Below, piece after piece: positions 6,843 to 27,161 of a stretch of 27,268 bases of DNA. Both the position numbers and the translations under genes were made by a program. Numbering within the stretch: position 1 is the stretch's first letter; every line of letters starts with the position of its first letter. The stretch comes from Rhodospirillales bacterium (GTDB taxonomy: Bacteria; Pseudomonadota; Alphaproteobacteria; Bin95): positions 1-27,268 of the forward strand of contig JAYQLI010000020.1 in assembly GCA_038143065.1 (NCBI GenBank), read 5' to 3'. The notes under the pieces are model-generated. The model was not told where the DNA came from, did no database searches, and saw nothing but the letters and a program-made list of their open reading frames with translations.

Positions 6843-8263
6843 TTAACGCCCATAAACATCATCCAGCCTGACGATATCATCTTCGCCCAGATAATCGCCG
6901 ACCTGCACTTCTATCAACACAAGTTCGTCGTCGCTAATATTTGTAAGCCGGTGTTTCTCCCCCAGTGGAATAAACGATATTGTCCCGGCCCAGTTTCAAA
7001 CTCTTTATCGCCGACTTGCACGGTGGCTTTCCCACTGGTCACCACCCAATGCTCAGCACGTTTGTGGTGATATTGCAGGCTCAATTTTTGCCCTGGCGCG
7101 ACAGTAATGCGTTTAACTTGGTAGCCTTTTTCCTTTATGAGCGTAGTATAAGTTCTCAAGGCCTTTGTACTGTGGCAGGGAGCTCTGTAAATTCGGAATT
7201 TTCACTTTACTTAATGCTTCGACCACCAGCTTCACATTCTGCGATTTAGTGCGATCCGCGACGAGTAGCGCGTCGGGAGTATCAATAACTACCAAATTTT
7301 CAATACCAATAGCGGCAATTGCCTTTTTGGTGAGATGGGGAGCTTTCCACATGTGTGTTTTGCGTCTCAATAAAATACATTGCCTCCGCGCCAACCACGC
7401 TATTGCCATCGGCATCGGCGTCACGTGCATCTGCCACAGCGTCCCAACTGCCTACATCCGACCACCCAAAGCCAGCAGGAACCATGACCACTTTTTCAGC
7501 CTTTTCCATTACCGCATAGTCGACGGAAATATCCGGCTGGTTTCTAAAGCTTGCTTCGGCAAAGCGCGTCACACCCGCCTTTTCAGCTGCCTCCGCAAAA
7601 GCGATTTCAGACAACGACCACACATCGCCCGCATGGAAGCCATGTTTTCGGCCATTACACTTGCCGTGAAACAGAACATGCCACTGTTCCAAAAATAGCG
7701 ACCTTCAGAAAGATATTTTTCGGCTCTCTCGCGGTCGGGCTTTTCAACAAAGGCCTGCACAGGTTGCGGAGCGTCTCCCATCGCGACCGCCTCCAAATAG
7801 CCATAGCCCGTCTCGGGCCCAGTTGGACGAATGCCGAAGACGACGAGATTTCCAGCTTCGGCTTGCTCTACTGCCTGCGCAATGTCCTTTTCAAAAGCCT
7901 CATCACCAGAAATCAAATGGTCCGCCGCCAAGACCAAGCAAACAGCTTCGTCACAATGCGCCTTTTGGATATGCCGAACAGCAAGCGCGATAGCAGGTGC
8001 GGTGTTACGGCCCTCAGGTTCAAGCAAATAAGAGACCTTTAGGGCGTTAGGCGTTTGTTTGAGCAAATTCTCTGTGAGAAAGTAATGGTTCTGATTGGTC
8101 ACAATTAGGGCTTCGTCTGAGATGAGGGCCGCGCGCTCCAACGCATGCGCGAGGAGCGTTTTGGACGCCACCTTCATGAAAGGCTTGGGGTGCATGCGCC
8201 GTGAAACGGCCACAATCGCGCACCAGCGCCGCCCGACAGGATAATCGGAATAACTTTATTCAT
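6843..8263 (-). CDS. manC: Mannose-1-phosphate guanylyltransferase / mannose-6-phosphate isomerase (frameshifted)
   Basis: [65 protein letters not shown], cupin [31 protein letters not shown]. Confidence 0.93.
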
Positions 8264-8360
8264 GGTAATAGTTCTTGCCCAACTCGCCCATTGTAAACAT
8301 CTTTTCACTCATAGTCTTATAGACTGTCTTCTGAGTTCCTTGTTAATTTTGAAGGAGGGT

Positions 8361-8372
8361 CAAGCTGCCGCG
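8361..8372 (-). promoter_or_regulatory. ops-like pause element in the manC leader
   Basis: Minus strand reads CGCGGCAGCTTG versus enterobacterial ops GGCGGTAGnnTG (2 mismatches); lies between the RfaH-like gene and manC. Confidence 0.45.
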
Positions 8373-8483
8373 CTCCTCAGTGAATGACGCAATAATGCAA
8401 TAACGCAATGTGCACCCCTTGGATCACGGTTTGCGAACTTTAGATAGTGTCAATGTTTGATAATCTCCAAAACCAATAAAGCC

Positions 8484-8994
8484 CTAAGCACGCTCCACAT
8501 CCCCCCGTGGGTAAACATCTAAGTGTGTTTTCTGCCCCATGAAATCGAAAAGAATACGCAAACGGTCCGCGGCCACGAAGGTTTCTAACTCACCCACGAA
8601 TTCAGCAAATGACCCCGAAACCATTTTTACAGCCTCGCCAGCTTTAAGATCATCCAGCGGACGCAAAACCGCCTGCTCATCACAGCGTTTCATAAGCGCA
8701 ATCATCAAACCATTCGGAACAGCGGCTGGCTTTTCAGCGCGAAAAGACAAGACGCGCAACACCCAAGGTCGAGTTAATTTTGCGCTAATCACTGTTTTGC
8801 GAGCCGAACCTCACAAAAATATAACCTGGAAAATTGGCCGCAAAACCTCCTTGAGTTGACGTGCATGGCGGATTGTTTTCCGGCGCATAGGCATAAAAAG
8901 TATCAAAATTTTGACGATTTAGGTTGGTAATAGCACGCCTGAAACCATTGGGTTTGAGTTGGGCAACATACCAATCATCATTTTTATCAATCAT
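8484..8994 (-). CDS. NusG/RfaH-family transcription antiterminator (frameshifted)
   Basis: WYVAQLKPN, NLNRQNF, FPGYIFVRF (NGN domain); GEAVKMVSGSFAEFVG...RLRILFDFMGQ (KOW domain); located in a polysaccharide locus. Confidence 0.88.
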
Positions 8995-9396
8995 CACTTC
9001 GTGCGTTCTTTCATCAATTGAGCTTGGAGGTGATTTATTTCTTGCTCTAAAAGACGATACTCAGTTTGCTTACGCCTCAAAAACGAGGCCGTGAGCTTCG
9101 ATTTTTTCCCTAATTCCTCTTGGGGTCAAGAGGTAGGCATAACCAATTTTTTTTGAACTTTTCCGGAAGTTCTCGGCTTTTACCAAACCTCGACCAATGC
9201 CTTGAGGCAATAATTAACACTTCCCAGACTAACGCCAACCTCCGAGGCCAAGCTGCGCTGCGAGACATTGGGCTCGACCTCCAAATGCGAGAGTATTTCA
9301 AGCTCGATTTCCAGCTTTGATTTCGGCTTAAACTCAGTTTCTGAGGGTGTATCTGGGTGGGTGTTCAGTCCACTTCCGGGATTAGTTTTCTTTCAT
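8994..9396 (-). CDS. MarR-family EPS-associated winged-helix regulator (frameshifted)
   Basis: Manual translation: ILSHLEVEPNVSQRSLASEVGVSLGSVNYCLKALVE...AENFRKSSKKIGYAYLLTPRGIREKSKLTASFLRRKQTEYRLLEQEI; stop overlaps the start of the NusG paralogue. Confidence 0.88.
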
Positions 9397-9479
9397 CTGC
9401 CCTTTAGATAAATCTCTCAATAACTTTCAAAAAGAATTTTTCTACGCTACCGCACATCAGGGTGACAGCCCCAATGGTG

Positions 9480-9496
9480 TGTTCATAGTGTGAACA
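9480..9496. promoter_or_regulatory. Palindromic operator candidate TGTTCA-N5-TGAACA
   Basis: Perfect 6-5-6 inverted repeat 84 bp upstream of the MarR-like start, in the divergent marR/wzz intergenic region. Confidence 0.55.
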
Positions 9497-9530
9497 TAAA
9501 AGCTAGCCGCAAGTTAGAAGCGATGCAATT

Positions 9531-9550
9531 GAAATTTTGCGAAATTTTGC
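9531..9550. repeat. Tandem 10-bp duplication (GAAATTTTGC)x2
   Basis: Directly visible in the divergent promoter region. Confidence 0.8.
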
Positions 9551-9750
9551 ACTTAAAAAACTTTAAATATGATATTTTTTAAATTCAAGCGGCATGAGGA
9601 GTTCATTCATGGAAGTTTACTTATTAATTTTTGCCTATGTTTCGATCGTTCTATTTGCAATCTAATAATTTTAAGAACGCGAGTTTTGAAAATTAGCTTT
9701 CATTTTAGTGGTTCACTAGCTATTAACAAAAAAAGTTAAGGAGAGGGCAT

Positions 9751-10851
9751 ATGAGTGAACTACCCAATGACGAAATTGATCTCGTCAAATTGCTTCAGGT
9801 TATCTGGGACGGGAAATGGCTGATTGCCGGGTTCAGCGCATTGATTATTTTACCTACTTTCGCCTTCCTGGCATTTATTTATGAGCCGGGCAAAAGCGAG
9901 CATAAACCTTCTACCCTTAGCGAAACTCAAATGAATCTTTATAGTGGGATTAACTCGGCCTTGCCTATCCCGATGACTTCGGCAGCCTTTCAAGACACAT
10001 TTTTTTCGAGAGTTTTTTACTGGCGAAATACCCGGAAAAATTATTTCAGAAAATGACCGACGGATTCAGAGTTTGAAGGCACGGAAATCAAAAAACGCCG
10101 CGATAGCTGACATTGTTGGTACGCGAGATTATTAAGATATCAGAAACAGCTGTTTTAACGCCAACTGTGATGTCCTTTGAAGCCGGTGACGCGCCCGAAG
10201 CGCAAAAAATTTTAAAAGCGGTTGTTCAAGCCCTAAATAATAAAACTATTTTGTCGGCAAGAAAAATATAGAGAGCGTTCAATCAACACAAAACGAAAAT
10301 TAGATTTCGAAATCCTGAAAACCGAAATAGCTATTGAAAACATCCTCGATGATTATGAAACACGCACTTCAGCCCGCAAGGCATATCTGGCCGAACAACT
10401 TGCTATCGCAGAGACAATAAACATTGTAGAAAATGGATTTTCGGATCTCTTGAGCAAGGGCAGCATCACAGGAATTTCTGGTCAAGATAGTCTGCCATTT
10501 TACATGCGCGGGTCGAAGGCAATTGCTAGAGAACTGTCGCTTCTGAAGGCAAGACGAAACTCAAGAGAGCACTCTAAAACATATCGACATTTACCCTGAG
10601 TTAAAAGCTAAATTACTGGCTCTAAAACAGACCCATCAATCGGGAATCTTGAAACGAGTTTGCCAATTCCCCCTTTCGCAAATGATAACCAAAGAATTAT
10701 GAATTATAATTTGAATTCAATCACAGTAGTATCGACACAGAGTAAGCTCTTAATTCTCATACTTGTTTCCATTCTGGCCGGTATCCTTGCTACGGTTTTC
10801 GTTATGGTGAGACATTTCATGTCAAATCAAAATACCCAAACTGCTCATTAA
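9751..10851 (+). CDS. wzz: Wzz/FepE polysaccharide chain-length determinant (frameshifted)
   Basis: GGAGAGG RBS; DEIDLVKLLQVIWDGKWLI plus TM1; YLAEQLAIA, LPFYMRGSKAI; C-terminal TM LILILVSILAGILATVFVMVR. Confidence 0.88.
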
Positions 10852-10860
10852 GCATCTTTT

Positions 10861-11924
10861 ATGCTCTCGCTAATTTATATTTCAGTTATTGCGACTTTAC
10901 TTGCTACAGCGCTTGTCATTGCTTTTGATCCTCTTTCAAGACGCCTGGGCCTTGTCGATAAGCCGTCGGGGCGCAAGCAGCATGAAGGTGAGATACCGCT
11001 TATCGGGGGTCCGGTAATTTTGCTTGTGCTCATTATTGGGATTTTGATTTTTGTTCCGAACCCCTCCCGAGCGGGATAATGGCGGGAACCATGCTCGTCA
11101 TTCTAGGGGTGGTTGACGACAGACAGCCTGTTCCAGCAATCATAAAGCTTGTTTTCCATGTCGCTGCTGCCACCATTGTTGTAATGGACGAAAACCTAGT
11201 AATTTCTAATATTGGCATTTTTAACGAAACATTTGGTTCACCAGACTTTTCCACATTACATTTTGTCTTAGCTATTTTTGCCATTACAGCGGCCATCAAT
11301 GCCTTCAATATGATCGACGGCATTGATGGCCTAGCTGCTAGTATGGCACTGCTAGCACTCACCCACGCAAACCTTGCCTTCAACCTGATTCACGGCGCAA
11401 CACCTCCCGACTATGCCGTTTTCGTTGTTTTGTTTTCGGGCGCAATCGCAGGGTTTTTAATGTTTAATCTGCAAATTTTTAACGGCCGAAAGGTCTTCCT
11501 CGGTGACAGCGGTTCCATGCTAATCGGCCTAATTGTCTCAAATGCCATCATTGCCGCAAGCCAGGACACTGCAAGGCTGTTGGAAAGTCCAAAAATCCCT
11601 GCATCTTTATGCCTATGGCTTATTGCGATACCAATTACCGACATAACAAGCATTGTAATTGGAGGCTTGCCAGCGGTCGTTCGTTATTGGCGCCGGACCG
11701 AACACATTTACATCATAAAATTATGGACATTGGGTTTTCGGCCCGACGAACTTTACTTATTTTGATCTTATCCGCTGTAGGAGCTTTTTGGCTCGGTTAC
11801 GGCCTGACCATCCAATTCGGCGAAGCGATTAGCATCATTGATTTTAGCATTCATGCCGACCTTTTATCTCTCAATTCAGTGGGTCTGCAAGTGTCTTCGC
11901 GACCTCAGATCGGCAGGGCTCTAA
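10861..11924 (+). CDS. wecA: WecA/MraY-family undecaprenyl-phosphate HexNAc-1-phosphate transferase (frameshifted)
   Basis: GLVDKPSGRKQHEGEIPLIGG, LGVVDD, INAFNMIDGIDGLA, KVFLGDSGS, PDRTHLHH. Confidence 0.88.
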
Positions 11925-11973
11925 ACAATCACCTTTATCAAATTTCTCTAAGTCAGGCGTTTGGCGTCTGGGT

Positions 11974-14075
11974 ATGGGGCAAATAGATATATCTTGCACA
12001 CATGTTTCTGTTAGAGGCGCGATAATCATCTCCTACTCAGCGCAACTGCCTTTTCCGCTCAAGCGCAAACTGGTGGGGCGTGGGAAGCGCGCGAAATTAC
12101 AGCAGATGATAAGCGCAGCATTATCAATGCGAGCGGGGATGTCGAATTTTCTAGTGCGACCAGCCGCCTTACAACCAACAGCCTGACCTATAATCAAAAC
12201 ACCCAGCAATTGGTCCTCGCCAATAGGCTTCGTTTGATTGATGAAAACGGAGACACAATTGTCGCCGATAGCGGTGTCTTGGATAATGCGCTAGAGAAGG
12301 GTCATTTTGTCAACATGCGCTTGAGCACTGCTGCGGCAGCCGCTTGCAGGCTAAATCGGCCGAGCGCAATGGTTCAGAGCTTTGAAGACGCGACTTACAC
12401 GACATGTCGCGAATGCGAAGAACCTGATAGAGCTCCGCTTTGGCAAATTCGAGCTTCTCGCATTGATTATGATCGAGAAGCGCAAAACGTCATATATGCT
12501 CATCCTCGGCTTGAGGTTTATGGCCTGCCGGTATTTTATTTGCCCTATATGGCCCATGCTGGTCCCGAAATTGACAAACGCAGCGGCTTTTTGACCCCAG
12601 CTACGTCCGGTCAAACGACTTCGGCACGGCGGTTGATATGCCATATTTTTTCAACCTCGCGCCCAATTACGACCTGACACTAACGCAGCGTTTGAGCGAC
12701 CAACAAGACCCTTTCATCACCGGCGAATGGCGCCACTTAACTGTTAATGGCAGCTATCGCCTAACCGGCTATGCACACCGACCACAAGATGAATTGGCCG
12801 AGGATAGTAACCAAGAATTGCGGGGGTGGCATTATTGGTGATGGACAGTTCGAGCTAGGCGATTGGTCGCTAAATTTGCGTTGCAAGACGCAACTGATGA
12901 TATGTTTTTCCGCCGCTATAAAATATCCAACGAAGCGCGCCTGAGCAGCAATCTGTTAGCGCAGCGGCGCTTAGGCAATCATCTCATCAGCCTTGAAGCT
13001 TTTCATTTTCGTGAAACATTATCGGTAGAAACGGCCTCGACAGTAGGTGCCGTCTTGCCAAGCCTGACGCATCACTATGACTTTCCCGAGCCATTTTTTG
13101 GCGGCAGCTTGGCCATGACTAACCACCTGACCCATCGTCAGCGAGACCTTGATGTCGATGAGACAAGACTGTCCTCCATGCTCAATTGGTCATGGCGGCA
13201 CAACGCAAGTGGTTTGTGCTTTCAGCCAACAATCGCCTGATACTTGATGCCTATGATTTCACCATTGAAGAAGGCGATGAAAGCAGCAGCGCCGCCGCCG
13301 CCATTGATGAGGTGCTGAGCGCCAATAGCGCCGCCTTCACCTTGGCCTATCCGCTTCAGCGCAGTGCCCAAATGACCGGCAGACATTATCTCCAGTTGTA
13401 GCTCGTCTTGGCCGATGTGGCTGAGGATTATGACGCGATTCCGCACATTGGTCAGACGACGCGTGACCTGACCAAAAGCCAGCTTTTCCAACCGCTCACG
13501 CCAAAAGACGAGGCCAGCCGCATCAATCTCGGCCTTGACCATGAGCTGAGCTTTAAAGACCGGCTGGACATCGCGCTTTTTTATCGGTCAATCCTATAAT
13601 CTGAGAGATGAAAGCTTTGACCTGCGCTCGGGCTTCGAGACGACCGCTCGGCGCTGATTACCGGAAGCGGCGCTTTATGCCGGTGCACTGAGCCTCACCC
13701 AACAAGCGCGCTTCAGCGATGATGGCAGTGCGCTTTGCAGCGACAGCAAAATGGCTTTGGCTTTTGAAGCTTTCAATATTGGCCTCGACCATAGCTTCTA
13801 TGAAGCCGGGCAAACCAGCGCGAATGCCGATGACCCATTGGAAGAAGCGACCGGTCGATTAGGCTGGCAAAATGAGCCGAAACTGGCGCCTTGATGCCAG
13901 CCTGCGAGAAAATCTGAAGAAAAAAGGGTTCGGGCCGATGCGGCTTTTAACGCCTATGAAGATGACTGTACTCCTCATCACAATCAGCTTTGACCGCGAT
14001 TATTCGCGCATAGGCAATATTGAGCCCGATACCAGTATCAATTTCACCTTTTACCCTGAAACCATCGGCAACTGA
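11974..14075 (+). CDS. lptD: LPS-assembly outer-membrane protein LptD (heavily frameshifted; start approximate)
   Basis: ATYTTCREC, PLWQIRASRI, VYGLPVFYLPYMAH...KRSGFLTP, PYFFNLAPNYDLTLT, TDDMFFRRY, YEDDC, FDRDYSRIGNIEPDTSINFTF. Confidence 0.88.
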
Positions 14076-14116
14076 GCCTAACGCCCACCCGCGCCTGACT
14101 TTATAAAAACTGTAAA

Positions 14117-14920
14117 TCAGAACCATTCCGCCACTATAGGCGACATCTTCCTTGAACAGGGGACTGTCCTGATTGGTCGCGCCATCATAAAGCTCGACAT
14201 TGCCTCCAATAAAAACCGCAAACTATCATTAACCGGATAAGATAATCCGAGGCCGATTTCTGCCCCGATATAACCAGCTTCGGCCGCATATAAGGGCCGG
14301 AGCGGTGTGTCATAGGCATCCGTGACCTCAAAGAAATAACGATTGAGACGCTGATTGCCGAACAGCAATTCAAGATCGGCTTGCCAGCTTAAATTAAGAT
14401 GCGTTTTTGATTGCAGCTCATAGACAAAACTCGGCTCAAACAGGAACCCTTTGGTGTCAAAGTCGGCCAGTGAAATGACCGAGCGGGCTCGCAATTTAAC
14501 GTCGAAAAGCCCCTCCCAGTTGCCATAATCGTTACGTCCGGCATGCCAGATAACTTGAGGCCAATCTCGAAAAGGAAATCCAAATCAGGCATGCCTTCAC
14601 GGTCGGCATCATCTTCTGAACTGGCAGGCAGGGAAGCACCCAGCGATAAATCCAATTCAATCGCGGTCATTGGCAAACGCCAAGGCGCGAAAGGCGCCTT
14701 CATCGCCGACAGAGAAGACATCGCCGCGATAAATAACATAGGGCTGATAAAGGCGAGCGGTGGTTTCATCATCAGCTGCCGGATAGGCCGGACCGCTAAA
14801 TAGCGGTTGACGAAACCGGCTTCCCATAGCGGTTCATCAAGTGGTCCTCGGCAACGGCCGCGGAAATCAAACCGGCGCTTATGGCAACAATAGGGCAAAA
14901 TTATTTTTCAGGCCGTTCAT
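14117..14920 (-). CDS. MipA/OmpV-family outer-membrane protein (frameshifted)
   Basis: PLWEAG, ELDLSLGASLPASSEDDADREGMPDLDFLFEIG, NRYFFEV...RPLYAAEAGYIG, aromatic C-terminal residue. Confidence 0.78.
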
Positions 14921-15089
14921 CAATGCTTCTTTGTTGCAGATCTTGCTGCATTTTTTGTGCCACACCGTCTTTTCCAGTCAAGGCCGGCAAAATGATGAAA
15001 ATGCAGCTCCAAACAAAAGCAATAAGAGCAATGGCGATAAATACCATGTGGCTATCGACCGGCTTCTTGGCCGGATTCATCCTCGACAT
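14901..15089 (-). CDS. Small single-pass membrane protein, unknown function (62 aa)
   Basis: Strong GGAGGAG RBS, one hydrophobic helix VFIAIALIAFVWSCIFIILPAL, overlaps the MipA start. Confidence 0.65.
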   Translation of the reverse strand: MSRMNPAKKPVDSHMVFIAIALIAFVWSCIFIILPALTGKDGVAQKMQQDLQQRSIDERPEK

Positions 15090-15201
15090 GAAGTCTCCTC
15101 CAACGCCAAAAACCCTAATCAGATTGCGGTTTTTTTACAAGCGCCAACGCCCTTGCCTTACCCTCATGGCGATTGGCTAGGTTTTCTGTCGGAGGAATTC
15201 C

Positions 15202-15411
15202 ATGCAGGTAAAAAGTGAAATTGCCGGCAGTGTTTGGAAAATCATTGCCGAGACGGAGCCGATTTGGCTGCCGATGATGTCATTGTCATATTGGAATCCA
15301 TGAAAATGGAAATTCCGGTGGTCGCGCCAAAAGGCGGCAAGCTGACGGAACTTCATGTGGCTGAGGGCGATATGGTTGGCGAAGGCCAGTTAATAGCGAC
15401 ATTTAGACTAG
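15202..15411 (+). CDS. Stand-alone biotin carboxyl carrier protein (frameshifted)
   Basis: GGAGG RBS; MQVKSEIAGSVWKI...ILESMKMEIPVVAPKGG...VAEGDMVGEGQLI with the biotinylation motif ESMKM. Confidence 0.9.
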
Positions 15412-15428
15412 CGCATGGGGCGCAACAC

Positions 15429-16984
15429 ATGAGCTGGGACAAAGACATTGACGAGATTAAAGAGCGGCGCAAGCTCGCCAAACGACAAGGCGGTAAAGAT
15501 GTCAAAACTATCATGGTGGCCGCCTGACGGTTCGCGAGTTTACTGATGCGCCGCTGCTCGAGTCAAAACAGCTTGACGAGGTCGGCGAAGGCGCAGGCGT
15601 GCCCGAATATGATGATGCGGGCAAACTGGAAGGGATTTTCAGCCCGCCAATTTTGTGCTCGGATTCGGCCAAATTGACGGCCGCAAGGATTGTCGGCGGC
15701 GAAGATTTCACCGTACGCGGCGGCTCGCCCAATCCGGCGGGTTTGCGCAAAAGCGTTATACCGAGCAATTGGCGCTGCAATATAAAGTGCCGCTTATTCG
15801 CTTGCATGAGGGTGGTGGCGGTTCGGTCGGTGGCACCAATAAGGAGAAAATCGGCGTCCTTTGGGCGAGCCGGTGTTTTCACAATCGCGCTTTGTGCCTT
15901 TGGCCGAAACCCTGTCTGCCGTGCCGGTGGCTTCTGCCGCTTTGGGGCCCGTCGCTGGCCTGCCGGCGGCCTGCCTTGTGGCATCGCATTTCACGGTGAT
16001 GACGCAAAATGCCGCCGTGTTGATTGCCGGACCACAAGTGGTCAAGCGCGCTCGGCCATGATATGACCAAGGAAGAATTGGGCGGCCCGCAGTGCATTTA
16101 AGCTCCGGCGCGATTGATAATTTGGCCGAAGATGAAGACGATGCGATGGGTGCAAATTCGCCGCTTTTTGTCGTTTCTGCCCGATAATGCCTGGGCCTAT
16201 CCTGAAAAATTACCCTGTAAAGACAAAGCCGATCGCTGCGAAGACAGCCTTGCCGATATTGTGCCGACCAATCGCCGCCAGCCTTTTCAAATGCGTAAAA
16301 TCATTGAAGCTGTGGTTGACCGTAACGGGGACGGTTCGAGCTTTTTTGAAATGTCGCGCAAATATGGCCCCAGCCTCATTACCGGCTTAGCCCGTCTTGA
16401 TGGCGAGAGCGTCGGCATTATCGGCAATGATTGTATGTATTATGCCGGTGCCATGACGGCAGCGGCGGCACAAAAACTGCGCCGCTTTGTCGATTTCGCA
16501 ACAGCTTCCATTTGCCGATTGTCAGTTTTGTCGATGAGCCGGGGCTTATGATTGGCCCCGATAGCGAGCAAGCCGGCACCATTCGTCACGGCACGGCTGC
16601 CATTTCCGCCGTATTGCAAAGCCGCGTGCCCTGGGCCAGTGCAAGTGCTGAAGGCTTCGGTGTCGCCGCACAGGCACATTTCGGCCCGACGGCTATGTGT
16701 TGTTCGGCCGAGGGCTGCCAGCGGGGCGCTGTCTGTCGAAGGCGTGGCGTTGCTTTTGCCTTTGCGAGATTGCGGCGGCCGAAGATCCAGCGGCGCGGCA
16801 AAAGGAAATTGGAAGATATGTTGGCGGCCAGCCAATCACCCTTCCCACGCGCGGAAGGCCTGTCCGTGCATGAAATTATCGACTGGCGCGAAACGCGGCC
16901 AAAATTAATTAGCTGGCTACGCCTTTCGCCGTGGCGTTATGCAGACTCAATCGCCTGTCTCATATGACCGGCATGCGGCCTTAA
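15429..16984 (+). CDS. Acyl-CoA carboxylase carboxyltransferase (beta) subunit (frameshifted)
   Basis: MSWDKDIDEIKERR, HGGRLTVRE, VGGEDFTVRGGS, RLHEGGGGSV, GPVAGLPA, AGPQVVKRA, ITGLARLDG, FVDEPGLMIG, EIIDWRETRP. Confidence 0.9.
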
Positions 16985-17002
16985 ATTTCTTGAGGGAAAA
17001 AA

Positions 17003-18116
17003 ATGAGTGGAAATCGCCAAATCGTATCAACCGCCACCGCCAAGGGTGAGCTTATTTTATCGCTTGTCGAAAATGACATGCCAACAACCCAATGATGACG
17101 AGGTCGTTGCTCGAAATCGGAGCCGCACCGATTAATCCATCGGATATGTTTCCGCTCTGGGTTTTGCCGATTACTGCGCGCAAGCTCGTAATCACAATGA
17201 AAAAATGATTGCGCCCGTGCCGGAGCAATTTGTCGATGCTACAGGGCACGGTCGACCAAACCCTGCCGGTCGGCAATGAAGGTGCCGGTCGCGCCGTCGC
17301 GGCAGGGGCCAATGCCAAACATTTGGAAGGCAAAATGGTCTCACTGGTATCCGCCAATGCTATCAGCAATTCGTCAAAGCGCCTGCTTTCATGCGCCTGC
17401 CACATCATGATGATGACGACAGCCGAAGAGGCTGCCTTTCTTACGTCAATCCATTGACCGCGCTCGGCTTTATCGAAACGCTGGAAAGCCGAAGGCCATG
17501 GCTGGGCGGTGCATACTGCCGCCGCTTCCAATCTTTGGGCAAATGGTTTTGAAAATTGGCCTACAAGTAAGGCATTGATTTGATTTGCGTCATTCGTTCG
17601 GACGAACAGGCAAAAATCCTAAAAGATTTGGGCCAAATATGTCATCAATTCAAATGATGATGATTTCAAAGCGCAGTTGGTTGATGCCATGGCTGAAAAC
17701 CGAGGCGACTTTGGGTTTTGACGCTATCGGGGCGGGTGATATGGCTTGATTGACGCTTTATTGGCCTGCATGGAGCGCGCGCTCAGTCGCAATGCGCCGG
17801 GTCTCAATACTTACGGCCTTACCAGCACAAGCAGGTCGGAGGATTTTACGGTCGCTTGGCGCAAGGGCCCGTCACTTTGGGACAAGCTATGGCACATTGG
17901 GGTGTCGGCGGCTGGTTGCCGACGCTGTTTTTGCAGAAAATCGGTTTGAGCGCATGGGCGAATTACAAGCTCCGTGGCCAATGAGATTAAACCACTTTTG
18001 CCAGCCATATCACCGATGAGCTGAGTTGGTGGAAGCGATTTATCCGGAGAATATTGCGCGCTATATGCCGAAAAAACCGGTGAGAAATATCTAATCAAGC
18101 CGCAAAAAGGCTGTAA
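17003..18116 (+). CDS. MDR-family (zinc-binding/quinone oxidoreductase-like) dehydrogenase (frameshifted)
   Basis: AAPINPSD, PVGNEGAGR, VHTAAASNL, LGFDAIGAG, FASHITDEL, TGEKYLIKP. Confidence 0.82.
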
Positions 18117-18120
18117 TCGC

Positions 18121-18632
18121 TCAATCGTTCAATTTATCGAGGCCGAATTTGATCCCCGGCATGGTGAATATAATGGCGTTCATCGGGCGAGATTTGTCCG
18201 TCCGATGTCGCTATCGCCTGCAAATAATCGAAGATTTCCGCTTTGCCTAAGGGCAAAAGCGGCGCCACCGCATCGACCACATATACTGATTGAAACGGCA
18301 ATTGCTTGGCGGCCGAACGACCACTTTCAAAATCCTGATCGTTAAAATTGGAATGAGCCGGGCGCCCAGCTTTTCAGCCATATCAACTCGTTCTGCTCAA
18401 CCTGCCCGTCAGCCAACACCATGGCGGCGGCTAGCCCGTAAACAATATTCAGAAAACTGTTTTCGCGTTGTTTGACCAATTGGCCGAGCCGGTCTTTTCA
18501 TGCGCTTTTTCAACTTTTTTCAAAACCGTGTTGTCGCTACTCTTGCGGCGGCGCAGCAGAAATATAATCAGCAGTAAAACAACAATCAGAGCGCCGCTCA
18601 AAGCGGCCATAACTCCGAATAGGCATAGCCAT
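18121..18632 (-). CDS. TerB-like domain protein with N-terminal membrane anchor (frameshifted; missing from the ORF track)
   Basis: TM segment ALIVVLLLIIFLLRRRK, then two TerB-type motifs AAAMVLADGQVEQxE and LQAIATSDGQISPDE. Confidence 0.7.
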
Positions 18633-23748: not shown

Positions 23749-24913
23749 ATTAGGCAGGTCGCGTGAGCGTCAAAATTGACGCCAGCTTTACCCAAGCGCT
23801 CGACCAAAACCATCCCCAAGCCGCTAGCGCTGGTCAGAACGCCACCATAGGCGCTGCCGCCCGGCAATTTATCGCTATCTTCAACCAAGCATAGCGCATT
23901 CTGAGACCAATTTGAGGTCACTATAACCCGGATCACCTTGCCATGAATGCCGGAGACCAGCTTGTCGCCCTTTCCGTCGTATGATAAACTTGCAATAAAC
24001 CAGCCATTATTGCGTTCTTCTTCCGACGGACCATCGCCCGGCTGTTTCGTAGCGGGCGCACCATTTGCGAGGTGAATAGAACAAAGCCCACATTATCGCC
24101 ATGCCCATTAGCCCTTTAAAGCGCCACCGCGTCGAGTGATAAGAATACCCTGATAGACAAAATCAGCGCCATAGGGTTCCTGGCGCAAGCTCAGCAAGCC
24201 GCTGAACGGCGTACCACGCGCGTGTTGGCGCCGGCCATTATAAATGGAGCGGCAAAACCTTCTAACTTCAGGCTTAGCCGCTATGGAGAAGCCATCGCTA
24301 CTAGCTTTTTTCATTTCAGGCGTTACCGTGCCATCTGGATTGAGCAGAAACGGGTTGGTCAAATCATCACCCAGATCAAGTTCCGGCATTGAGAAAATCG
24401 CCCCCAAAGTGCGCCGAAGCATCGCCCTTATAAGAATGAAAGCTGACGCGCTTAATGGGCGCCTCGATTTTTGAATGGCGAAGAAGCTGCCGAGATCGGA
24501 AGGAATTGAGTCAAAACCGCAAGAAGGAATAATACGCACACTTAGCGGCGGCTTCGGCGTGATGTTTTTCAATCAGCCCTTGACCTGAAAAATTTTCGCC
24601 GGTAATGTCGACATAATGGCTGCCATTTTTAACGCAAGCCGCACCAAATTTGAGCCATAACGATGAAAAGGCCCGGCCGTGGAAAGAACGACTTTGTGCG
24701 CGCCGTCAACGCGTCCAGCGCCGCCATATCGTCTGGAATTTTGGCAATGATGATTTCGAGCTGGCCCCTGCCTCCTGATTGACCGCAGCCAATTTATCGG
24801 CATTTCGACCTGCTATCGCCCATTTTACCGGGCTCATGAAGCCGCCAAATAGGCGGCGCACAACGTCCAGTGAAACCGGTTGCGCCATAGACGATAATAT
24901 CCAAATCCTTCAT
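23749..24913 (-). CDS. Saccharopine dehydrogenase-like / trans-acting enoyl reductase family protein (heavily frameshifted; 3' end approximate)
   Basis: MKDLDIIVYGATGFTG, WAIAGRNADKL, VVLSTAGPFHRYG, HYVDITGE, IIPSCGFDSIPSDLG, GDPGY, YGGVLTSASGLG. Confidence 0.88.
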
Positions 24914-24923
24914 TTCCTGTTCC

Positions 24924-25276
24924 TTATTTCTCAACCTTGTGACCGATACAGAGCGCATAGAAATTGTCAGTAGATTATTCGCAATTCCTCTTATCGCACA
25001 GCGATTGATTTCCATTGGCAGCATTTTCGTGCACCCGGCCGGTTTGAGCCGCGCTTTTGAGGCGAAACGCTCAGCGCAATAATGCTGCGCCATATTGTCG
25101 GCAATGCGCCGCTCCTTATAGAGATATGAGACGGTGATATGATTTCCAGTCGCGGAAAAATGAAGCGCCTCATCGCGCGCGCCCGCATGAGATGGCGCAA
25201 AAGACGACAAAAACATAATGGCGCATGCGAAAAGCGCTTTGCCGCTTAATTTATCGCTTTGGCGGTCGGCACACAT
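24924..25276 (-). CDS. Putative secreted hypothetical protein with several Cys
   Basis: AAGGAG RBS; signal-like ALFACAIMFLSSFAPSHA; likely true end FYALCIGHKVEK* just before the RBS of the next gene (needs one indel). Confidence 0.55.
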
Positions 25277-25382
25277 GACATCTCCTTTTGATATATAATG
25301 GCGCGCGCCTTTAAGGCCGATAAGCCTTTTCTGACAAAAATGCATACAGATGATCAAAATTATGTTACTCAGCCTTCGTCTG

Positions 25383-25479: not shown

Positions 25480-25685
25480 ATGCTCACAGGAACTGTTAAA
25501 TGGTTTAACGCCGATAAAGGCTATGGATTTATTGTTGTTGAAGGACAAGACGATGTTTTTGTTCACATTACAGCGGTGCAAGCTAGCGGCCTAACACTCA
25601 AAGAAGATATGAAGATTTCTTTGAAAAAGAGCAAGGCAATGTTAACGGTAAATATTCTGCCGTTAATTTGACTGAAGCCGACTAA
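25480..25685 (+). CDS. cspA: Cold-shock protein, CspA family (one frameshift)
   Basis: [15 protein letters not shown] (RNP1), DVFVHITAV (RNP2); corrected C-terminus [20 protein letters not shown]. Confidence 0.93.
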
Positions 25686-25688
25686 TTG

Positions 25689-25716
25689 AAAGGGCGCATT
25701 TAGATGCGCCTTTTTT
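25689..25716 (+). terminator. Rho-independent terminator of cspA
   Basis: GGCGCAT-TTAG-ATGCGCC stem-loop followed by a T tract. Confidence 0.88.
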
Positions 25717-25818
25717 CATTTCGGAGCGCTGAATCGTAAGGGTTTTAGACGACTCGGTTGGCAGTACGGCGTCTGTCTGACAAAATATTCTCTATAAAGC
25801 CCAGCGCAGGCGGCTTAT

Positions 25819-26027
25819 TTATTGCCCGATCACACTAAAGATTGGAGCAATGACCCTTTATCGCTTTTGCGCTTCTGACAGCCTTAACAAAATCCATGGC
25901 ATCGGTGATGGAGTGGGACAGCGTGTCCAAATGGGCTTTGTCTTCATAAACAACTGAATGAACCTGAGAACCGGCAGCACACAGGCGTCGCAAACAGAAG
26001 CGCGACGATGGGCAGTATGCGGGTCAT
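25819..26027 (-). CDS. Small secreted hypothetical protein, shared-leader gene C (frameshifted; missing from the ORF track; 3' end approximate)
   Basis: ATG overlaps the upstream stop (TGATG); MTRILPIVALLFATPV(W)AAGSQVHSVVYEDKAHLDTLSHSITDAMDFVKAVRSAKAI after restoring a presumed collapsed G run. Confidence 0.65.
25983..26027 (-). repeat. Shared leader-coding repeat, copy C
   Basis: ATGACCCGCATACTGCCCATCGTCGCGCTTCTGTTTGCGACGCCT; 40/45 nt identical to copy A (hand count). Confidence 0.9.
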
Positions 26028-26475
26028 CAATCGCTATGTTCTTCTACGTATTTAGAGAACGCATTTCCTAAATCCCTGAGCTCATCACAGCCTTGGGGAC
26101 ATAGAGCCTCTAGTTTTCTCAAATTAGACTGAGCAGAATTTATATCATGCAGGGTTAGAAAGAGCTCTCCCTGATATTCAAGCGCTAGCTTATGGTCAGG
26201 TTGAATCGCAAGGGCCTCTTTATAGAAAATTTTACTATTTTCGTAGTCGCCGATTTTGCGGTGGGCGAAGCCCAAGTAATTGAAAACATCAGCATTATCA
26301 GGCTCTTCTTTTTTGCCTTTTCAAGCTTTCCAATCGCTCGCTTATATTTTTCTTTTTTGATGAGTTTTTTCGCATCGTTGATTAGCTTGCTAGCACTTGG
26401 CTCATAGCTGTAACTTCCTGCTGCCCAAACGGGCGTTGCAAACAGAAGGGCGATGATTGTCAGTATACGGGCCAT
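26027..26475 (-). CDS. Secreted tetratricopeptide-repeat protein, shared-leader gene B (one frameshift)
   Basis: Leader MARILTIIALLFATPVWA; TPR helices PDNADVFNYLGFAHRKIGDYENSKIFYKEALAIQPDHKLALEYQGELFL; C-terminal LEALCPQGCDE. Confidence 0.88.
26431..26475 (-). repeat. Shared leader-coding repeat, copy B
   Basis: ATGGCCCGTATACTGACAATCATCGCCCTTCTGTTTGCAACGCCC; 37/45 nt identical to each of copies A and C (hand count). Confidence 0.9.
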
Positions 26476-26484
26476 TGGTGTCCT

Positions 26485-26772
26485 CTACTTGCAAAATGTT
26501 TGGTAAACCGCGGTATAATTAGAAGCAACGTCAGTTAACCATTGTATTTCTCCCGCAGGCATGATGCGCTCGGGAGAGTCTTCAGGGAGGGCGTTGAGTT
26601 TTTTCCAACTCTCATCAGCCTCGCCGAGCAAAGCTCCAATGAGCAAAGCAGTTTCAAGACAGTCTGACTTACTTGGTTTATCGTGACTTCCAAGCCTAGC
26701 GTGCATATCTGCGCACGCTGCTAGTATTGGCGTCGCAAACAAAATCGCGATGATGGTCAGTATGCGGGTCAT
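26485..26772 (-). CDS. Putative lipoprotein, shared-leader gene A (95 aa)
   Basis: Intact ORF with GGAG RBS; leader MTRILTIIAILFATPILAAC ends in a lipobox (LAAC); helical body with two further Cys. Confidence 0.8.
   Translation of the reverse strand: MTRILTIIAILFATPILAACADMHARLGSHDKPSKSDCLETALLIGALLGEADESWKKLNALPEDSPERIMPAGEIQWLTDVASNYTAVYQTFCK
26728..26772 (-). repeat. Shared leader-coding repeat, copy A
   Basis: ATGACCCGCATACTGACCATCATCGCGATTTTGTTTGCGACGCCA. Confidence 0.9.
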
Positions 26773-26849
26773 GTTTTGTACTCCGAGAGTTTAAAATCTA
26801 CCTGATACAAATCAGCGTAAACTAAACCTCAATTCAGAGGCAATACACG

Positions 26850-27161
26850 ATGCGCGATAAATCAGGACGTTTTGTAAAAGGCTATAGCGGCAACGCTGGC
26901 GGCAGGCCTAAAGATGAGCACAATATTGCTGCTCTTGCTCGCAGCTATTCAACGGAAGCTATTGAGACGCTGGTGGACCTTATGCGTAATGCTAGAGACG
27001 ATAGAGTGCGTGGCACAGCTGCTCAGGCTTTGCTTGATAGAGGCTTTGGGAAGCCGAAGGTTGAGATAAAGAATACGAATGCTGATTTCAGGGATGCGTT
27101 AGAGCAGGTGCAGAGCAGGCTGTTGAAACGGTCACACTCAGGTCACAACAACGCTGTCTAA
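26850..27161 (+). CDS. Phage-related DUF5681-type / small-terminase-like protein
   Basis: GAGG RBS; N-terminal GRFVKGYSGNAGGRPK motif, helical EAIETLVDLMRN...RVRGTAAQALLDRGFGKP. Confidence 0.75.
   Translation: MRDKSGRFVKGYSGNAGGRPKDEHNIAALARSYSTEAIETLVDLMRNARDDRVRGTAAQALLDRGFGKPKVEIKNTNADFRDALEQVQSRLLKRSHSGHNNAV

Follow-up and report, generated by a model that had tools for sequence, protein, structure and literature searches.

We found that one signal-peptide leader, conserved as DNA as well as peptide, stands at the head of at least 85 unrelated families of accessory, predicted exported proteins on mobile islands of a single, abundant clade of small-genome marine Alphaproteobacteria, the PS1 clade and relatives of Candidatus (Ca.) Micropelagos. 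We describe it from a contig of 27,268 nt (JAYQLI010000020.1 of assembly GCA_038143065.1, a Rhodospirillales bacterium), which was analysed at its full length and is called the window below. Three consecutive minus-strand open reading frames (ORFs) in the window, genes A, B and C, start with this leader at 26772, 26475 and 26027. In related loci the same leader precedes unrelated cargos, in arrays whose cassettes, each a leader with its cargo, are permuted and decaying, and these arrays lie on mobile islands.

The first residues of the three genes read MTRILTIIAILFATP, MARILTIIALLFATP and MTRILPIVALLFATP. Their first 45 nt are identical at 37, 40 and 37 positions in the three pairwise comparisons, which reproduces the 37-40 of 45 given in an initial annotation of this DNA. 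The block that they share is 44 nt long, from the ATG to the CC of the Pro15 codon, and encodes a 15-residue signal. It occupies 26729..26772 in gene A, 26432..26475 in gene B and 25984..26027 in gene C, all on the minus strand; the copies in B and C are placed by pairwise identity and by a pattern match, and that of A agrees with the commonest form of the leader at 42 of 44 positions, as measured on the copy at locus L009, which is identical over the 44 nt. The leader pattern matches the window three times and 100 dinucleotide shuffles of it not once. Across the whole 4.63-Mb assembly, a fuzzy six-frame search returned the leader in A, B and C only. Signal peptide regions and cleavage sites were read by eye or by pattern matching throughout. 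So read, the n- and h-regions consist of R3, then ILTIIALLFA, then TP. Gene B has the features expected of a signal peptidase (SPase) I substrate, with a charged n-region, a hydrophobic h-region, small residues at -3 and -1 and cleavage between VWA and A, and gene A matches the lipobox pattern [LVI][ASTVI][GAS]C with ILAAC, as for SPase II. The genes are tightly coupled, as originally described: the spacer between A and B is 9 nt, and the stop of B overlaps the ATG of C as TGATG.

Beyond the leader the three genes have nothing in common. Gene A (26485..26772, minus strand; cargo family c5) encodes a predicted 95-aa lipoprotein, an assignment that draws on the ORF, its homologues and an AlphaFold2 (AF2) model. 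Its mature part is predicted to form a two-helix hairpin (helices 35-60 and 67-94; AF2 pLDDT 76) and carries Cys38 and Cys94. Nine metagenomic homologues are 78-89% identical to it. No Pfam family matched gene A, and a Foldseek search of the model against the PDB gave nothing at E<=0.001, the top rows being generic helical hairpins. Gene B (26027..26475, minus strand; cargo family c1) encodes a predicted periplasmic tetratricopeptide repeat (TPR) protein of 149 aa with cleavage between VWA and AGS. In the window the gene is broken where a T run at 26308 has lost 1 nt (T6 against T7), and its downstream piece still matches TPR_2 (E 7e-9, 35.6 bits against a cut-off of 27; 40.6 bits for the intact orthologue at L061). 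The gene is intact in L009, which is 98.5% identical, and all three runs that cover 26308 have the extra T; the frameshift is private to this error-rich contig. When the A and B families were aligned with hhalign, the alignment was confined to 20 leader columns, and the two mature regions are thus not homologous by this comparison. Contigs from RNA libraries cover parts of A and B in three runs, although contigs cannot show transcription and uncovered parts carry no information.

Gene C (25835..26027, minus strand) is a decayed cassette. It reads MTRILPIVALLFATPVCC... and stops after 27 codons, the leader frame ending at 25944, with the same break in L009. Its body is 60-71% identical to the C-termini of cargo c15 in five loci: nucleotides 1-46 of the leader are joined out of frame to about nt 1054 of the gene for a 404-aa LIP-family lipase, of which the last ~50 codons remain. 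Because the leader is joined out of frame to a lipase end, gene C is a lipase cassette with a 1-kb internal deletion and not a short protein of its own. The view that the three bodies are unrelated therefore stood for A and B, and the description of C as a short unknown did not. The AAGS common to B and C, pointed out initially, lies in the lipase C-terminus; it is coincidental and can be dismissed as a trace of common origin. A duplicate-then-delete scheme with gene C as its intermediate is likewise ruled out for C by the lipase match.

The leader extends far beyond these three genes. We scanned one genome per species, metagenome contigs and viral contigs with a codon-degenerate leader pattern that leaves third codon positions free, and counted as a leader-bearing start any ORF start with at most four substitutions in 13 residues. 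The leader peptide, MTRILTIIALLFATP, begins 164 ORFs in 83 marine loci plus the window; the loci (labelled L007, L009 and so on as they were fetched) are mostly metagenome contigs. Species genomes contributed 11 loci, nine of them in marine Rhodobiaceae, Parvibaculaceae or PS1-clade metagenome-assembled genomes (MAGs) and two by chance, and metagenome contigs contributed 75, one of them by chance. The pattern had no match in viral contigs; blastn of a phage collection gave no match, and a plasmid collection none either. At the nucleotide level, 158 copies match at 34 or more of 44 positions. In the MAG family, 17 of 57 species genomes, which measure 1.1-2.1 Mb, carry one to five leader copies, and a reversed-pattern control in the same 57 genomes gave none. 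Moreover, a profile of the 30 N-terminal positions, run against 1,835,955,588 representative proteins, returned 184 matches at E<=1e-3, nearly all of them from residue 1. The leader is thus neither limited to three genes nor bound to one fixed synteny: it recurs at many loci in species genomes and metagenomes alike.

Cargo diversity is correspondingly high. The fetched loci hold 130 cargos of at least 25 aa in 51 BLAST clusters, and when the 150 listed of the 184 representatives are added, 245 cargos of at least 40 aa form at least 85 families. Searches of the 51 cluster representatives against Pfam and NCBIfam identified SOUL, TPR, LIP lipase, BD-FAE esterase, trypsin/HtrA-like, MORN, HXXEE, NTF2-like and YHYH proteins. 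No Pfam family is matched by more than one of the 51, and no family in Pfam or NCBIfam by more than two; therefore no curated model covers the leader itself. The one model matched by two representatives, YHYH_alt, is a cargo family. The c-region varies with the cargo: among the 150 listed representatives, 80 have AWA, nine VWA and 22 a lipobox-like motif. These motifs point to a c-region that sets the processing enzyme, with AWA or VWA predicted to lead to SPase I and a LAAC or LVAC lipobox, as in gene A, to SPase II. Among the representatives is a group of leader-bearing proteins of ~130 aa (P0135, P0137, P0139, P0140, P0150 and others) in which AWAGEVDGNSF[YF]C follows the leader; the window has none of them, and the group may be the largest cargo family, with 19 members.

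A signal peptide is normally the part that evolves fastest, and it stays with its protein. How, then, is this leader conserved? When each cargo cluster is represented once, conservation is 0.82-1.0 at most positions from 0 to 43, counted from the ATG. Upstream of the ATG, conservation is at background, bar an A at -1 and a weak GGAG. Downstream of the block AxA codons alone stand out, and after about +54 conservation is at background; where the AWA cleavage site is also shared, the module is 54 nt long. Codon choice is conserved too. At ten of 14 leader codons the consensus synonymous codon is present in 82-100% of copies, the other four being looser (0.45-0.63); in cargo bodies the share of nine of those ten codons is 13-26%, and that of the tenth (TTT) is 71%. 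Within sets of orthologous cargos, the fraction of identical codons is 0.61-0.90 for the leader against 0.60-0.97 for the cargo. Leaders of different cargos have the same codon at 0.68 of conserved residues, within that orthologous-cargo range of 0.60-0.97, and are thus as alike as orthologues from moderately diverged genomes. The conservation of synonymous codons, together with this likeness across cargos, argues for identity by descent on a recent time scale and against both convergence and a special nucleotide constraint; judged from these comparisons, the leader DNA is identical by descent and not convergent. At the amino-acid level, leader identity is 0.87-0.95 against 0.69-0.91 for the cargo in orthologue sets 1-5, and lower than that of the cargo in sets 6 and 8 (0.71 and 0.86 against 0.96). 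Leader copies were picked by peptide similarity, so any protein-level selection estimate (dN/dS, nonsynonymous over synonymous change) made from them is biased.

Where did the leader come from? One orthologue of the TPR gene bears the name Ca. Micropelagos thuwalensis at its source. As TPR orthologues diverge, the leader fades by degrees, through forms such as MKPLLLATALLFSTPVWA (Micropelagos) and MRMVFILALLFSPPAWA, and TPR homologues of less than 50% identity have unrelated signal peptides. An outgroup locus, L114, repeats the order tRNA-Val, cspA, TPR gene and also has c6, and the signal peptide there is a different one for each gene. The c6 of L013 has the house leader instead, joined exactly at the cleavage site between AWA and QSLGNL: the cargo's own signal peptide has been replaced at precisely that point. 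The leader is probably the native signal of a resident TPR gene beside tRNA-Val, which, to judge by these comparisons, was grafted onto its neighbours and onto island cargo. Relatives of cargos with other signal peptides, a prediction made from the window, are found in three places: the distant TPR homologues, c6 in L114 and a paralogue of cargo c3 in the window itself.

At the tRNA-Val/DUF5681/cspA locus, genomes differ in which cassettes the array contains and in how these are ordered, as the initial annotation anticipated. Beside DUF5681 we found c5-c1-C in the window and L009, c5-c1-c1' in L026 and L061 (L065 has the same array on a contig that ends short of DUF5681), c3-c4 in L011, L016, L034 and L069, c10-c2-c9-(c1) in L085 and c19 alone in L072. 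The order c3-c4 occurs in six loci (L011, L016, L034, L048, L069 and L056) and c4-c3 in L036. L026, L061 and L065 contain a truncated second TPR copy, that is, a truncated second copy of gene B. Contigs from one DNA run and one RNA-library run join 25737 to 26210, which is the third cassette of the L061 type; alternative third cassettes therefore coexist in the same samples. In contigs of other runs, the joins 25737/26210 and 25990/26437 give B followed by a truncated second B copy that is fused to the cspA terminator.

The junctions between cassettes are compact. Among the 77 places where a cassette meets the following leader, 36 are overlaps with its ATG (26 as ATGA and ten as TAATG or TGATG), and 52 lie within 12 nt. 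The spacing to the next leader is fixed for each cargo, whatever follows: +38 for c4, +9 for c5 and +83 for c9, always -4 for c2 (before c9, c19, c15 or c8) and always -1 for c1 (before c3, C, c17, c1' or c13). Decay is common, and 29 of the 164 leaders head short dead ORFs. Truncation affects the 3' side of seven leaders and the 5' side of none; the clustering of their break points at nt 25-31 is an artefact of the detection criteria. At two sites, L062:11379-11440 (plus strand) and L067 (minus-strand offset 7259), a 28-nt 5' part of the leader is joined to a DUF5681-start/P-box sequence at a shared ATCGCGC. These joins lie behind different cargos, c41 and c8, and may be one old event or a recurrent one.

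The arrays lie on islands of a familiar kind. Several genes recur beside them: DUF5681, in 12 loci and divergent from the first cassette; a 146-aa unknown protein, in 10; an N-formylglutamate amidohydrolase, also in 10; and Prim-Pol with PriCT_1 and a tyrosine integrase, in eight each. In the window, the DUF5681 gene (26850..27161, plus strand; 103 aa; PF18932, E 6.9e-7) is divergent from the array and weakly matches a terminase small subunit, phrog_2538 (E 1.1e-7); the primase of the islands matches phrog_1156 (E 3e-29). A tRNA scan of the window found none. The contig ends 107 nt past DUF5681, where L009 has tRNA-Val (L009 1644-1720). Since tRNA-Val(GAC) lies beside DUF5681 in at least 13 loci, L009 included, the window contig ends just short of the tRNA.

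The arrangement of att-type tRNA repeats with an integrase occurs in relatives, outside the window. In L072, direct repeats of tRNA-Val, 79 nt long and spaced by 4112 nt, flank a unit with DUF5681, a leader cassette, Prim-Pol and the integrase, and L034 has two tRNA-Val copies. The integrases in eight loci adjoin tRNA genes or fragments; most arrays have no integrase. L051 (4901 nt) has a 141-nt terminal overlap with one mismatch, which implies a circle or tandem unit of 4760 nt. It contains the integrase, Prim-Pol, a Lambda Bor-like lipoprotein (PF06291, E 8e-21), an orphan leader and a c4 leader cassette, and a tRNA-Arg(CCG)-like fragment adjoins its integrase. Judged by gene content, the cargo-bearing elements are small, target tRNA-Val or tRNA-Arg and look like phage satellites, with a tyrosine integrase, Prim-Pol and the TerS-like DUF5681; the make-up of the leader islands appears, on the same grounds, to be that of tRNA islands resembling phage-inducible chromosomal islands (PICI) or of the tycheposon type. 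A further contig of 5.8 kb (L068:660-5765) has four P-boxes, three leaders, one of them truncated, and tRNA-Arg by an integrase fragment, and looks like several decayed elements stacked in tandem.

A second conserved sequence, the P-box, lies between DUF5681 and the first cassette; like the tRNA-linked island setting, this repeated module escaped the initial annotation. In the window this divergent intergenic region (26773..26849, minus strand) contains the hairpin GCCTCTGAATTGAGGT and resembles a promoter and 5' untranslated region. The module consists of the first eight DUF5681 codons (MRDKSGRF) and a 58-nt intergenic part with the hairpin, and spans 26773-26873 in the window. Among the 76 copies in the fetched loci (L007-L092), the leader follows in 31, at exactly +58 in 28 of them and at +77 in the window; the other 45 are followed by genes for proteins that are not exported. 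In at least 26 copies, the DUF5681 gene behind the module breaks off or gives way to other sequence beyond some eight codons. The RNA of P-box plus leader folds better than shuffles (z -2.9), a signal that comes mostly from the P-box hairpin.

We lean, if only by a modest degree, toward a reading in which the leader is an ordinary Sec signal, for SPase I or II, whose copies are identical by descent and serve as a portable joint for the exchange of cassettes. The repeated leader and P-box would provide the portable homology, and general recombination of the RecA type between islands, between copies and with incoming DNA would add, delete and permute cassettes in frame at the joint. New fusions of leader and cargo would arise from rare illegitimate joins. 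Selection would keep these fusions because each would come with a start codon, coupled translation and an export signal adapted to the host. Several points weigh against this reading. A length of 44 nt is short for efficient RecA-dependent exchange, and general recombination alone does not explain how over 85 fusions, independent and in frame, came about at the cleavage site or close to it. The leader peptide could be under selection of its own. Leaders on the same contig differ at 6.4 positions per 45 nt and those on different contigs at 6.8 (permutation p 0.2), and ongoing local gene conversion is therefore not seen. In tests of half-leader linkage, on small and non-independent samples, the 5' half did not follow the upstream neighbour; over its full length, 5' half included, the leader follows the downstream cargo, so crossovers inside the leader are not demonstrated. 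No recombination or capture event at a leader was caught directly in the loci. Finally, metagenome assemblies may be mis-joined at repeats, although the same array orders recur in independent assemblies. The proposal of a constant leader with swappable cargo is thus borne out by the many cargos and variable arrays, and its second half, a leader that acts as an anchor for recombination or capture, is not, with no event seen directly and no signal in the two tests for exchange inside the leader.

How else could one leader have come to stand before so many proteins? An integron-like, site-specific capture, in which the leader, perhaps with the P-box/DUF5681 start, is the site of a dedicated recombinase and cassettes move as circles, would account for several features: the sharp edges of the repeat; the compact, unidirectional and mostly promoterless arrays beside a divergent gene and promoter module; the confinement of truncation to the 3' side, in seven leaders; the joins at ATCGCGC in L062 and L067; and the tyrosine integrases in eight loci. 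We nevertheless consider it unlikely. Most arrays have no integrase, and those integrases that occur adjoin tRNA genes or fragments, as is usual for att sites; no dedicated recombinase accompanies the arrays. No fitting 3' site was found among junctions that so often overlap, no inverted-repeat architecture was visible in the leader, by eye only, and the break points at nt 25-31 are forced by the detection criteria. Furthermore, the leader diverges with its cargo like ordinary linked DNA. The broader proposal of an undescribed gene-capture system on satellite-like islands, an integron analogue with the leader and the P-box as its recombination sites and an in-frame, translated 5' repeat in place of attC, seems to us a little less improbable, and still doubtful. 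If it were true, a captured ORF would be expressed and exported at once, and streamlined marine bacteria would have a shared, exchangeable periplasmic and surface proteome.

Selection on the peptide itself is the basis of another explanation, a dedicated sorting route in which a specific factor for targeting, processing or localisation recognises MTRILTIIALLFATP, and protein-level selection keeps this peptide, much as YSIRK or prepilin-type leaders are. Leader identity equal to or above that of the cargo in sets 1-5 would fit, being unusual for signal peptides, although it is lower in sets 6 and 8, and so would the restriction of the leader to an island-borne subset of exported proteins, with one to five copies in 17 of 57 genomes. 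However, the same n- and h-block precedes both SPase I and SPase II sites (AWA in 80 and a lipobox-like motif in 22 of the 150 listed), so that no single dedicated peptidase fits; synonymous codons are conserved too, which peptide selection alone does not explain; the leader decays freely in the c6 and TPR lineages; and no candidate factor appeared among the recurrent neighbours in the 28 of 153 flank clusters that were scanned. The sorting route appears improbable, to about the same degree as integron-like capture. A role for the 44 nt as a regulatory element, either in the mRNA, for co-regulation or the start of translation, or as a site at which proteins bind or the satellite is packaged, is less probable by a wide step. 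Conservation at the nucleotide level, a block that starts exactly at the ATG of cassettes that are often translationally coupled when internal, the fold of P-box plus leader and the proximity of a TerS-like gene all speak for it. Synonymous sites of orthologous leaders nevertheless change as fast as those of their cargos, with no extra constraint visible, and the fold signal is that of the P-box hairpin and not of the leader. Nearly inconceivable, lastly, are tandem paralogues whose mature parts have diverged beyond recognition, for which adjacency and common 5' ends would speak. Folds and Pfam families differ from cargo to cargo (SOUL, TPR, lipase, trypsin-like, MORN, YHYH and others), hhalign aligns nothing beyond the leader, and relatives of cargos have other signal peptides. 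Since the synonymous sites of the leader are far from saturated, there has been no time for such divergence, and for cargos with Pfam assignments this explanation is refuted.

The initial annotation did not recognise a described system. For this lineage that holds, as our literature search, with supplementary tables outside it, found no description of the leader or of shared-leader arrays in marine Alphaproteobacteria; conceptual precedents do exist, in Borrelia and in phytoplasmas. Recombination shuffles the Erp/Elp loci of Borrelia cp32 elements, and the conserved block there extends upstream into the promoter as an 'upstream homology box'. In cp32 prophages of Borrelia burgdorferi, subfamilies of Erp/Elp lipoproteins share an OspE/F-like leader, for which Elp is named (PMC12242104, in the part available). 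As in the present case, a mobile element carries different lipoprotein subfamilies behind one leader peptide. However, that system belongs to a spirochete pathogen and comprises lipoproteins only, in three subfamilies, OspE-related, OspF-related and Elp, compared with at least 85 families and both SPase I and II here, and the sequences are unrelated. Unlike the upstream block of Borrelia, the block of internal cassettes here starts at the ATG, and the conserved P-box is found at first cassettes only. Phytoplasma SVM effectors are associated with potential mobile units, and we know of no description of SVM that includes tandem in-frame arrays or DNA-level identity with sharp edges. The sequence-variable mosaic (SVM) motif (PF12113), present on effectors such as SAP11 and SAP54, is a conserved N-terminal signal motif common to different secreted proteins within one lineage (PMC8026896, in the part available). 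Its hosts are Mollicutes, it is not homologous to the marine leader, and PF12113 had no match among the 51 cargo representatives.

Integron arrays are similarly compact, one-directional, mostly promoterless and strain-variable, with a promoter region by a divergent gene. The arrays described here lack attC: 36 of 77 junctions overlap the next ATG, and the profile contains no conserved 3' element. No IntI was found next to the arrays, where the divergent gene is DUF5681 (the IntI-specific insertion was not examined). The repeat here is also at the 5' end, in frame and translated, unlike attC. In CdiA-CT/Rhs orphan toxin cassettes and pilS silent cassettes, a short conserved coding block provides the homology for swapping variable modules. 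Those cassettes are C-terminal or internal and mostly silent until recombined, whereas the ones here are complete genes with their own start. Tycheposons, which belong to marine bacteria, combine a tyrosine integrase, a primase and a terS-type gene with tRNA integration, repeats and stacked, decayed remnants (bioRxiv 10.1101/2020.12.28.424599, in the part available). The islands here likewise have tRNA repeats, an integrase and a primase, together with a gene that weakly resembles terS. They differ in being small elements, of 4.1-4.8 kb, with leader cassettes as cargo; the term 'signal peptide' occurs 0 times in the available part of that preprint's text. None of the systems compared is homologous, and in none of them does a sharply bounded, in-frame 5' repeat at the DNA level occur together with both peptidase routes and so many families of cargo.

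With the leader, the old idea that modular exchange in mobile DNA is organised by short conserved linkers gains a concrete case that can be counted; the leader also ties export competence to horizontal gene flow in streamlined genomes. In practice, the 30-position profile flags a flexible exported proteome, with 184 representative clusters that are mostly of unknown function. The leader may also represent a natural plug-in secretion tag for both signal-peptidase routes. Should a dedicated capture mechanism prove true, it would be a new kind of cassette system.

On the right-hand side the array is bordered by a cspA-like cold-shock gene (25480..25671, plus strand; CSD, E 6e-15), whose frame is disturbed near its end and behind which a hairpin search placed the cspA terminator hairpin (25693-25710). 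Beyond it lies the ORF with the c3-family cargo paralogue (24794..25357, minus strand). It has another signal peptide (…FACAIMFLSSFAPSHA), is 35% identical to the leader-bearing c3 of L011 (E 6e-17) and is fused to the start of the next gene by contig errors.

Such errors are frequent on the window contig (C20), which has one open frame of more than 300 aa in 27 kb and on which a Na:Ala symporter, a UDP-glucose dehydrogenase and other ordinary genes are split by frame breaks. Comparisons with other genomes suggest that C20 probably belongs to a minor, small-genome organism of the PS1 type and not to that of the assembly's 2.86-Mb main contig. Genomes of the same genus as the assembly match the window only in short stretches of 65-77%, whereas L009 is 98.5% identical to it over 1.6 kb, and the L009 genome (G053) belongs to the family with the 57 genomes of 1.1-2.1 Mb. 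Contamination of the assembly is given as 5.5%. The array DNA had no match in 40 relatives of the assembly, because the contig probably comes from another, small-genome lineage. A further contig of the same assembly, C21, has the gene region of window positions 6847-18511 at 74-82% nucleotide identity (6 kb at 82%), which suggests two related strains or species in one bin; the fuzzy search of the whole assembly found no leader copy on C21. The stretch was present at half or more of the sampled words in 14 marine or estuary runs, and some part of it in 20 runs from 13 studies.

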